From a virus (Duplodnaviria > Heunggongvirae > Uroviricota > Caudoviricetes): DNA of 6,302 nt. Made by a program: the position numbers. The stretch covers positions 1 to 6,302 of IMG/VR virus record IMGVR_UViG_2695420732_000009; one strand, 5' to 3'. How positions within the stretch are numbered: position 1 is the first letter of the stretch; every line of letters begins with the position of its first letter. Shown here piece after piece: positions 3,001 through 6,000 of this stretch.

Positions 3001-6000
3001 CCAGTGGCACCATCACGGTAAGAATCAGTGATGATCAGAAATTTGACCGGCAGGTCATGATACCGCCAGTGTTATTCCGCGGTGGTAAGCATGAGAATTT
3101 CAACAGTAATAACCAACAGTCATACTGGTATTCAACCTGCCGGTTAAGAGTGACCCGCAATGGTCAGGAGATTTTTAATCAGTCCACGACGGATGCTCAG
3201 GGCGTATTTTCCTCAGTTATAGATATGCCTGCCGGACAGGGGACGCTGACACTGACATTCACCGTATCTTCATCAGGAGCGAATAACTGGACACCAACAA
3301 CCAGTATCAGCGATCTGCTGGTTGTGGTGATGAAAAAATCCACAGCAGGTATCAGTATCAGCTGAATTTTATAACCCAGAACGGGCGTCAGAAATGACGC
3401 CTTTTTTATTGCAGAAAAGCGAGAGGTAATTATGCGTAAACTTTATGCCGCCATTTTGTCCGCAGCCATTTGTCTGGCCGTATCCGGTGCGCCTGCATGG
3501 GCGTCTGAACATCAGTCCACGCTGAGCGCGGGGTATCTTCATGTCTCGACGAACGTTCCCGGCAGCGATGATCTGAACGGGATTAACGTGAAATACCGTT
3601 ATGAGTTTACGGACACACTGGGGATGGTGACGTCTTTCAGCTATGCAGGAGACAAGAATCGCCAGCTGACCCATTACAGCGATACCCGCTGGCATGAAGA
3701 TTCCGTTCGTAACCGCTGGTTCAGCGTGATGGCGGGGCCCTCTGTGCGCGTGAATGAATGGTTCAGTGCGTATGCGATGGCGGGCGTGGCTTACAGCCGT
3801 GTGTCGACTTTTTCCGGGGATTATCTCCGCGTAACTGACAACAAGGGGAAAACGCATGATGTGCTGACCGGAAGTGATGACGGTCGCCACAGCAACACGT
3901 CTCTGGCGTGGGGAGCTGGCGTGCAGTTTAACCCGATCGAATCCGTGGCCATTGATATTGCTTATGAAGGCTCCGGCAGTGGCGACTGGCGCACTGACGG
4001 TTTCATCGTGGGTGTCGGTTATAAGTTCTGATTAGCCAGGTAACACAGTGTTATGACAGCCCGCCGGTTCAGGCGGGCTTTTTTGTGGGGTGAATATGGC
4101 AGTAAAGATTTCAGGTGTACTGAAAGACGGCACAGGAAAACCGGTAGAGAACTGCACCATTCAACTGAAAGCCAGACGGACCAGCAGCACGGTGGTGGTG
4201 AACACGGTGGCCTCTGAAAATCCGGATGAAGCCGGTCGTTACAGCATGGACGTTGAGTACGGTCAGTACAGCGTCATTCTGTTGGTGGAAGGATTCCCGC
4301 CGTCACATGCCGGGACCATCACCGTGTATGAAGATTCTCAACCCGGTACGCTGAATGATTTTCTCGGTGCCATGTCGGAGGATGACGTCCGGCCGGAGGC
4401 ACTGCGCCGCTTTGAACTGATGGTGGAAGAGGTGGCGCGTCACGCCGGGGAGGCGAAGAAGAATGCCGGAGAGGCGGAGACGTCCGCGAGGAATGCCGGC
4501 ATATCAGCCAGTCAGGCAGAAGCGAGCGCGGCAAATGCTGACACTTCAGCAGGGGATGCATCGGAGTCAGCCCGGCAGGCGGCAGAAAGTGCAGCCGCTG
4601 CAAAGCAGTCAGAGGAGGCGTCCTCGTCCTCGGCCTCTGCGGCCGCTCAAAAAGCCAGTGAGTCATCACAAAGTGCAGCAGATGCTGAGTTGTCAAAAAA
4701 GACGGCAGAAAGTGCAGCCGGTAATGCAGCCAGGGATGCAACGACCGCAACAGAAAAAGCCCGGGAGTCAGCAGAAAGCGCACAGTCAGCGGAACAAAGC
4801 AGGATAGCGGCGGAAGAAGCCGTAAACCGAATCCCGACCGTGGTGGGGCCTCCCGGGCCAAAGGGGGAACCGGGGCCCGCGGGTCCTCAGGGGCCGAAGG
4901 GAGATAAGGGAGAGCGCGGTGACACCGGCCCGGCAGGGGCAACCGGTGAAAGGGGGCCGGCAGGTGATGCTGGTCCGGCAGGCCCGCAGGGGCCGAAAGG
5001 CGACAGGGGAGAGCGGGGAGAGACCGGGCTGACAGGAAGTACAGGTCCACAGGGTCCAAAGGGAGACACCGGGGCAGCAGGCCCGGCTGGCCCACAGGGA
5101 CCGAAAGGAGAAACAGGTGCGGCTGGCCCGGTGGGGGCAACCGGACCTCAGGGGCCGAAGGGCGACCCGGGGGAGACGCAAATACGGTTCCGTCTGGGGC
5201 CGGGAAACATTATTGAGACAAACAGCCATGGCTGGTTCCCGGATACAGATGGCGCACTCATCACCGGACTGACCTTTCTTGACCCCAAAGATGCCACACG
5301 GGTTCAGGGTTTTTTTCAGCATTTGCAGGTCAGGTTTGGCGACGGGCCGTGGCAGGATGTTAAGGGACTGGATGAAGTGGGCAGTGATACAGGCAGAACA
5401 GGAGAATGACATGAATATTTTGAGAAAGCTTATGGAGCGTCTGTGTGGTTGCGGAAAGCATGATGACTGTGAACACGGGCAGTCGCTTACAGCACAGCTG
5501 CGACTGGGACCGGCAGACATTCTGGAGTCAGATGAGAATGGCATTATCCCGGAGCAGGACAGGGTAATCACGCAGGTGGTGATACTGGATGCGGATAAAA
5601 AGCAGATACAGTGCGTGGTAAGACCGCTGCAAATCCTGCGTGCTGACGGGACGTGGGAAAATATTGGCGGAATGAAATAGCCGACAGCTTCACAAAAACC
5701 GGAGTCCGGCTCCGGTTTTTTGTGTTGCAATGTCCGGGGGATATTTGTTAAGTAAATGCATTTTCATGCACTGCGGTTTTAGCTGATATATTAACAAGCC
5801 ATGCAAAGGGAAATTTTACTGATATTTTTGAGCAGTATTATCCATTAGCATGGCGTTGATGTCTGTTGCTACGTGATGCCAATATATATTGCAAATCACA
5901 GAGCAGGCAGCTCATTAAACTTGGTAAGCCTTGCTACGATAAGGAAGGTTTACCATTGTGGTGTCATTAGCTCACATGTGTATGGGAGCTTTAAACGTTC

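Follow-up and report, generated by a model that had tools for sequence, protein, structure and literature searches.

A probable EPclA-type side tail fibre in a lambda-like prophage and a map of its junction with the lambda Stf anchor

Where does a tail fibre that begins like Stf of phage lambda cease to be lambda-like, and was the part that follows acquired by exchange or reached by divergence in place? The question is raised by the stf-like side tail fibre gene in a 6,302-nucleotide stretch of a Caudoviricetes virus (IMG/VR record IMGVR_UViG_2695420732_000009, positions 1 to 6,302; hereafter the window, meaning this whole stretch), which is the right end of a lambda-like prophage tail module. 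The initial annotation, made from the sequence of the stretch, had described a lambda-Stf-like N-terminus of about 110 residues, expected to anchor the fibre to the tail, followed by an Ala/Ser/Glu-rich low-complexity segment and collagen in place of the lambda shaft, and had proposed a module exchange at the boundary of the anchor domain. Our analysis indicates that the gene is very probably a mosaic side tail fibre gene of the EPclA family (EPclA, enterohaemorrhagic Escherichia coli [EHEC] prophage collagen-like protein A), carried by a long-tailed prophage resembling lambda, such as occur in Shiga-toxin-producing and attaching/effacing E. coli. A block of about 540 bp, from the 3' end of lom to stf codon 115, has 88% identity to lambda, and everything downstream of it would have a separate history.

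Domains of the fibre and the end of lambda similarity

The open reading frame (ORF) of the fibre runs from an ATG at 4096, with an in-frame GTG at 4090, to a stop codon at 5407-5409 and encodes 437 amino acids (aa); the positions of its parts and of the neighbouring genes are given in Table 1. Three Pfam families match it: Phage_tail_N (PfN, PF08400) at residues 1-133, with 133 of 134 profile positions matched (E 1.1e-69), Collagen (PF01391, E 2.4e-18) and Phage_fiber_C (PfC, PF06820) at residues 363-426, covering all 64 profile positions (E 3.2e-35) and followed by an 11-residue tail up to 5406. These E-values rule out chance as the source of the matches. About 116 aa lie between the Pfam end of PfN (133) and the collagen start (251). 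The composition noticed in the initial annotation is borne out by residues 118-245, which are 34% Ala, 19% Ser and 13% Glu; autocorrelation of the PCoil peaks at lags 7, 14, 21 and 28, and 21 heptads in all occupy residues 102-248 with the register unbroken. By analogy, the PCoil is predicted to be an Ala-zipper trimeric coiled coil. The collagen that had been announced behind it consists of 37 uninterrupted Gly-X-Y triplets, 18 of them with Pro at X, and position 4845, where the feature had been taken to end, immediately precedes the first collagen Gly codon. The collagen DNA contains imperfect, dispersed 43-nt direct repeats at spacings that are multiples of 9; Tandem Repeats Finder reported no repeats over 4000-5800. 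When the PfC region was searched by sequence against the Protein Data Bank (PDB), no credible match and no solved homologue emerged, and an AlphaFold2 model of PfC (monomer, 13-sequence alignment) was all-beta with a mean pLDDT (predicted local distance difference test score) of 52.7, too weak for any use of the fold; the phi24B authors likewise failed to model a PfC-type domain.

Table 1. Genes and fibre segments in the window.
Feature	Position	Strand	Basis
J; N-terminus cut off by the window edge	3-3365	+	seven gpJ Pfam domains
lom	3432-4031	+	Ail_Lom, E 3e-120
Left part of the lambda-like island: lom 3' end, lom-stf spacer with terminator-like hairpin (4058-4079 plus T run), stf ribosome-binding region	3904-4095	+	blastn
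stf-like side tail fibre gene, EPclA type, 437 aa plus stop	4096-5409	+	ORF; PF08400, PF01391 and PF06820; EPclA lengths
Collar (PfN/StfN) domain, tail anchor, residues 1-91	4096-4368	+	homology to Ur-lambda; limits from PMC12617516
Linker, residues 92-101	4369-4398	+	assigned by homology to Ur-lambda linker 92-101
First two coiled-coil heptads, residues 102-115, Leu/Phe/Val in core positions; last conserved segment	4399-4440	+	heptad layout
Similarity breakpoint, codons 116-117	4441-4446	+	blastn ends, change-points, dS rise
EPcl-type PCoil, residues 116-248, 19 further S-A-x-x-A-x-x heptads	4441-4839	+	autocorrelation
Collagen triple-helix domain, residues 251-361, 37 Gly-X-Y triplets	4846-5178	+	Pfam and repeat count
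Phage_fiber_C (PfC) knob, trimerising, presumed receptor-binding end, residues 363-426	5182-5373	+	PF06820
89-aa ORF with second PfC domain	5411-5680	+	PF06820, E 5.5e-36
nleC (type III secretion effector NleC), first 63 codons; runs off the window end	6113-6302	+	

The N-terminal part is lambda-Stf-like, as the initial annotation had it. BLASTP against lambda orf-401 aligned residues 1-128 with 106 identities in 128 positions (83%, E 6e-79) and returned nothing significant past residue 128, nor any similarity to lambda orf-314; over residues 1-115 the identity to lambda Stf is about 85%. Residues 1-93 share 86 of 93 positions (E 2e-53) with the side-fibre collar of Ur-lambda (PDB 9E7M/9MGH), the only solved relative. 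In the cryo-electron microscopy structure of Ur-lambda, which backs the role of the N-terminus as tail anchor, twelve collar domains ring the tube/tip junction and give rise to four fibres (PMC12617516). Ur-lambda Stf is divided into a collar (1-91), a flexible linker (92-101), a proximal coiled coil (102-393), and then a hinge and a distal part (PMC12617516; Sci Adv 2025, eadw7914).

At the DNA level, blastn against lambda finds one 542-bp block with 88.2% identity (window 3904-4445), reaching from the final ~130 nt of lom through the spacer as far as stf codon 117. Identity in 30-nt windows is 0.87-1.0 over 3970-4089 and, in the same register, 0.83-0.97 up to codon 118, after which it passes through 0.60, 0.60, 0.50 and 0.43 and lies within 0.3-0.5 further on. 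The sharp break expected beforehand near codons 110-120 is thus found at codons 115-117, in protein and DNA alike. It falls exactly at the end of the second heptad, at codon 115/116, 14 residues into the coiled coil.

What lies beyond the break differs from the initial description. The lambda shaft (residues 102-393) is itself an Ala/Ser-rich S-A-x-x-A-x-x heptad coiled coil, and when residues 118-245 of the window fibre are slid along it, identity is 0.25-0.40 at all multiples of 7 and ~0.15 elsewhere, shift 0 (0.32) being no better than the other multiples. This equal fit at every multiple-of-7 shift argues that the low-complexity segment is the same structural element as the lambda shaft in a shorter form, equal in phase but lacking positional homology; the contrast that had been drawn between the two does not hold. 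Ur-lambda Stf and the window fibre have in common the linker, the first two heptads, the Ala/Ser heptad type and phase, and the gene position after J and lom. They differ in length, the lambda coiled coil comprising ~41 heptads (102-393) against 21 here, of which only residues 102-115 align positionally, so that lambda-type shaft homology is absent past that point. The true change of fold is at residues 249-251, from coiled coil to collagen. Lambda then has a hinge, a Phage_fiber_2/gp37-like distal domain and an OmpC-binding tip, where the window fibre, without any Pfam match to Phage_fiber_2, gp37 or Collar, has collagen and PfC. Because this tip is unrelated to that of lambda, OmpC binding is not expected. 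Directly downstream of stf, lambda carries tfa (orf-194); here there is no tfa, and the 89-aa PfC ORF and then nleC follow.

Exchange or drift behind a conserved anchor

Substitution rates across the break bear directly on its origin. Between the window and lambda, codons 1-115 have a synonymous divergence (dS) of 0.39 and a non-synonymous divergence (dN) of 0.045, hence a dN/dS of 0.11, the collar alone (residues 1-91) giving a dN/dS of 0.037/0.433; for codons 116-165, kept in the same register, dS is ~1.5 and dN 0.58. This roughly four-fold jump in synonymous divergence points to a different history and not merely to weaker constraint, and it favours replacement over drift.

The company kept by the anchor was surveyed by an exhaustive search of 1.8 billion cluster representatives, from a library clustered at 50% identity, with the 117-residue anchor as query. 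It matched 673 proteins, 55 of which have 75% identity or more over their first 100 residues and yet belong to separate 50%-identity clusters. These 55 representatives are 239-1200 aa long, and their mean pairwise identity declines from 0.87 (residues 1-91) through 0.77 (92-101) and 0.76 (102-115) to 0.47 (116-129) and 0.29 (166-200); residues 116-150 sort into 18 classes. Distal Pfam families in the 43 longer representatives are Phage_fiber_2 (15), Collar (10), Peptidase_S74 (5), Collagen (3), PfC (2), gp53-like (2) and gp37 (1). One representative, P0135, has the same PfN-PCoil-collagen succession and ends in an S74 chaperone-type C-terminus. An earlier word-indexed homologue search with a 118-aa anchor had returned nearly all short partial proteins, of no use for architectures, and the exhaustive search was used instead. 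Change-points at residues 166-172 in some representatives, which might have marked a second junction, were set aside as an artefact of ~46% heptad-motif identity, as those proteins also diverge past 115. In the 246-aa protein P0121 the 117-residue anchor is matched in two stretches, a second collar copy restarting past about residue 130 at '...PVQNCTIQLK'; the anchor seems to have been duplicated in tandem here.

Annotated phages with the same anchor end their DNA similarity to the window at or near the same place. For lambda, 4A7 and HannyBb, among which two coiled-coil classes are represented, the limit is 4445; for Gifsy-1 it is 4467, and for phiSTEC1575 it is 4364, the collar/linker edge. 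Gifsy-1 Stf and its counterparts in 4A7, HannyBb and phiSTEC1575 share 76-88% protein identity with the window fibre over residues 1-117, whereas their coiled-coil classes, distal domains and downstream genes (tfa in Gifsy-1, others elsewhere) differ. Moreover, the N-terminal part of lambda Stf has been engineered onto P2, K1F, K5 and KL106 tips to give working fibres, which implies that the anchor is sufficient for mounting foreign tips.

We consider it improbable that no exchange took place at codon 115, in which case the N-terminal half of the gene would have descended vertically from a lambda-like Stf, with fast divergence and heptad slippage behind the anchor, and only the collagen-PfC part would be foreign. 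Such a course would account for the S-A-x-x-A-x-x motif and phase that the PCoil shares with the lambda shaft and for the stepwise, not immediate, fall of in-register DNA identity to background, and in-register heptad indels do occur, since the related protein P0122 has nine heptads fewer, in register, and length differences in multiples of 7 have been described (Ghosh et al., 2012). However, the rise of dS across the junction is beyond what relaxed protein constraint alone gives, the unshifted alignment fits no better than those displaced by whole heptads, and several distinct coiled-coil classes start at the same residue behind near-identical anchors. The module exchange proposed initially is accordingly supported, by the dS jump and the many unrelated distal parts; its proposed place at the boundary of the anchor domain is not, as the join lies two heptads inside the coiled coil and not at residue 91 or 101. 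Exchange in this position would have joined the downstream part in heptad register within the coiled coil, an arrangement by which any shaft and tip could hang on the same anchor.

An EPclA-type fibre and its proposed assembly

The window fibre is an ordinary member of the EPclA family, described in 2012 and already known. The same domains with the same lengths (437 aa, PfN, a 116-aa PCoil, a 111-aa collagen domain and PfC) identify the EPclA architecture; prophage position and composition (Ala 32-34%, Ser 19%, Glu 13%) are shared as well, and the differences are allelic only. EPclA, exemplified by ECs2717 and Z0982, goes back to Ghosh et al. (2012, PLoS One 7:e37872), who defined it, characterised it biochemically and found it to be the commonest collagen-like prophage protein of E. 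coli O157:H7, with nine or more copies per genome. Analytical ultracentrifugation, size-exclusion chromatography with multi-angle laser light scattering, circular dichroism and rotary-shadowing electron microscopy of the recombinant protein revealed a homotrimer with an alpha-helical PCoil, a true collagen triple helix with a melting temperature of 42 C in Col-PfC, a 7-nm PfC trimerisation knob, and an overall shape of a hinged dumbbell of 55-62 nm with two terminal knobs (Ghosh et al., 2012). The mosaic nature of EPcl proteins was already stated in the same work. Our own estimate of length, ~22 nm for 147 coiled-coil residues and ~32 nm for 111 collagen residues, agrees with the measured 55-62 nm. 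The absence of a tfa-like chaperone gene fits the self-trimerisation of PCoil and PfC and the ability of PfC to renucleate the collagen helix (Ghosh et al., 2012). EPclB, which forms the lateral fibres of short-tailed Stx phages (933W L0121, Sp5 ORF67/ECs1228, phi24B gp61), likewise combines PfN, PCoil, collagen and PfC and is followed by a similar 89-aa PfC ORF (Sp5 ORF68). It differs in having two collagen domains split by a Phage_fiber_2 repeat, in its length of 645 aa, and in docking on a podovirus adaptor ring, not on a siphovirus tube/tip junction; immuno-electron microscopy has located it on Sp5 tails.

A unifying model based on these data is that of a homotrimeric fibre in which three collar domains (residues 1-91) would be followed by the 10-residue linker (92-101), and two hydrophobic 'starter' heptads would set the register of the trimer. 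By homology with Ur-lambda, twelve collar domains would surround the tube/tip junction and carry four trimeric fibres. A ~22-nm coiled coil, a hinge and a ~32-nm collagen helix would then hold the PfC knob ~55 nm out, where it may make the first, reversible contact with the host surface and speed reversible adsorption. Domain content, breakpoint and partner diversity are direct observations on this gene and its relatives; trimer, coiled coil, collagen helix and collar structure come from close homologues; and we infer from these the assembly on the tail of this prophage and the receptor-binding role of the knob.

Several points weigh against this interpretation. A likelihood change-point falls at residue 115 in 28 of 54 representatives, a proportion that overstates the independent events because many of these proteins share a lambda-type start of the coiled coil, and no more than four or five clearly separate classes can be named whose divergence begins immediately past R115. 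The window fibre is known from its gene alone, and defective prophages are numerous in EHEC. BamA is not the receptor of a closely related C-terminal domain, that of lambda_2B8. In the prophage PPyecE_EH1910, the closest annotated relative, gpM is only 45% identical to lambda M, and the major tail protein is not significantly similar to lambda V and does not belong to PF16461 (docking-partner genes compared at L009 3080-3796 and 7777-8118). The collar is 92% identical to that of lambda, though these docking partners are far more diverged, and in the podovirus phi24B the same domain type docks on the adaptor ring. Given the divergent gpM and tube protein and the adaptor docking of phi24B, docking in the manner of Ur-lambda is an extrapolation here. 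Two linked ideas are, in our view, rather doubtful: that the near-invariant collar and the two starter heptads form a universal adaptor, and that the 89-aa PfC ORF downstream is a functional partner and not a relic. If the former were true, docking could occur on tails with a tube protein unlike lambda V and even on podovirus adaptors, and attachment would depend on ring closure or a generic surface and not on specific, co-evolved contacts.

Very improbable, in our view, is that the gene is a leftover of a defective prophage without a functional fibre, or that it serves the bacterium as a collagen-like surface or virulence protein alongside lom and nleC. The gene does have lom on one side and a type III effector gene on the other, it is present in many copies, some frameshifted, in EHEC genomes (Ghosh et al., 2012), and up to 18 places in one genome match the window; a role for the host was not excluded by Ghosh et al. 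(2012). The ORF, however, is intact, and its anchor has been under strong purifying selection, as its dN/dS indicates. There is no signal peptide or secretion feature in the protein, whose N-terminus is a tail-docking domain, and the same gene is present in inducible, sequenced phages (Evi and Stx1a/Stx2a, that is Shiga toxin, converting phages), while the EPclB homologue is on the virion and essential in Sp5.

As a mosaic side tail fibre, the gene is a textbook case of how tail fibres evolve by modules in the prophages through which Shiga toxin and type III effectors spread, and fibre type helps to determine which strains such phages reach. Current understanding is unchanged by the window fibre itself. 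What our study adds is a precise map of the junction, at codon 115/116 on a heptad boundary 14 residues into the coiled coil, together with the recognition that the lambda shaft and the EPcl 'low-complexity' segment are one structural element in the same register, which is useful for the design of chimeric lambda fibres.

The 89-aa PfC ORF and the surrounding locus

The 89-aa ORF starts 1 nt past the stf stop codon with its own AGGAG and consists of a variable, Cys/His-containing N-terminal part of 27 residues and a second PfC domain, 34% identical to that of the fibre. Compared with its homologue in PPyecE_EH1910, it has 0 non-synonymous and 5 synonymous changes in the PfC part and 6 non-synonymous changes in the N-terminal 27 residues. 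Members of the family occur only in E. coli, E. albertii and Citrobacter rodentium, and the exact 89-aa sequence is found on at least 999 contigs. Sp5 can do without its equivalent, ORF68, for which a role as a reservoir of tip variation has been proposed. As a functional partner, the protein might act as an alternative tip cassette, or as a subunit that changes receptor specificity by capping the PfC trimer of the fibre or mixing with it. In a 95-aa protein, P0329 (L003 4-291), the fibre collagen is fused in frame, at a shared G-P-A, to a PfC of the small-ORF type; we do not use it as evidence for a cassette swap, since the gene lies right at the start of a 3.3-kb draft contig and the fusion may stem from misassembly.

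The gene order J-lom-stf is that of lambda, and annotated relatives give the same gene names. Stx1a/Stx2a-converting phages, as well as prophages of O111 and other E. coli, share 95-97% identity with the window over its full extent. Among 5426 complete E. coli genomes, 4984 contain a match to it somewhere, the closest at 96.8%. The fibre protein is 94.7-95.0% identical to those of phage Evi and prophage PPyecE_EH1910, and its exact 437-aa sequence is absent from a collection of 15 billion proteins. No Rfam family was found in the window.

J, too, is a mosaic relative to its lambda counterpart: identity is mostly 70-95%, but ~10% at residues 801-840 and ~40% in the 125 receptor-binding residues at the C-terminus. 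Lom shares no more than 30-42% identity with lambda Lom up to its last ~45 residues (72-100%), which belong to the lambda-like island. Shortly behind J (3383-3402) and again shortly behind lom (4058-4079), both times on the + strand, there are terminator-like GC hairpins with T runs, the second being 17 nt upstream of the stf start within a stretch 87-100% identical to lambda; the number of such sites in the window is not above that in shuffled sequence. Between the small PfC ORF and nleC, positions 5750-6100 are AT-rich (41-45% GC, against 59-71% in the collagen region) and cannot be aligned to PPyecE_EH1910, both flanks being 92-97% identical to it; the segment looks like a cargo ('moron') junction.

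Two antisense ORFs, at 4319-5140 (273 aa) and 4786-5730 (314 aa), both on the - strand, overlap the coding regions of coiled coil, collagen and PfC. They have no Pfam match and fall only into PHROGs of unknown function (phrog_23612 and phrog_18077). We set them aside as genes, taking them to be probably conserved shadow ORFs of a gene of biased composition, annotated as they are in other phages; lambda has a comparable annotated antisense ORF, 'orf206b'.

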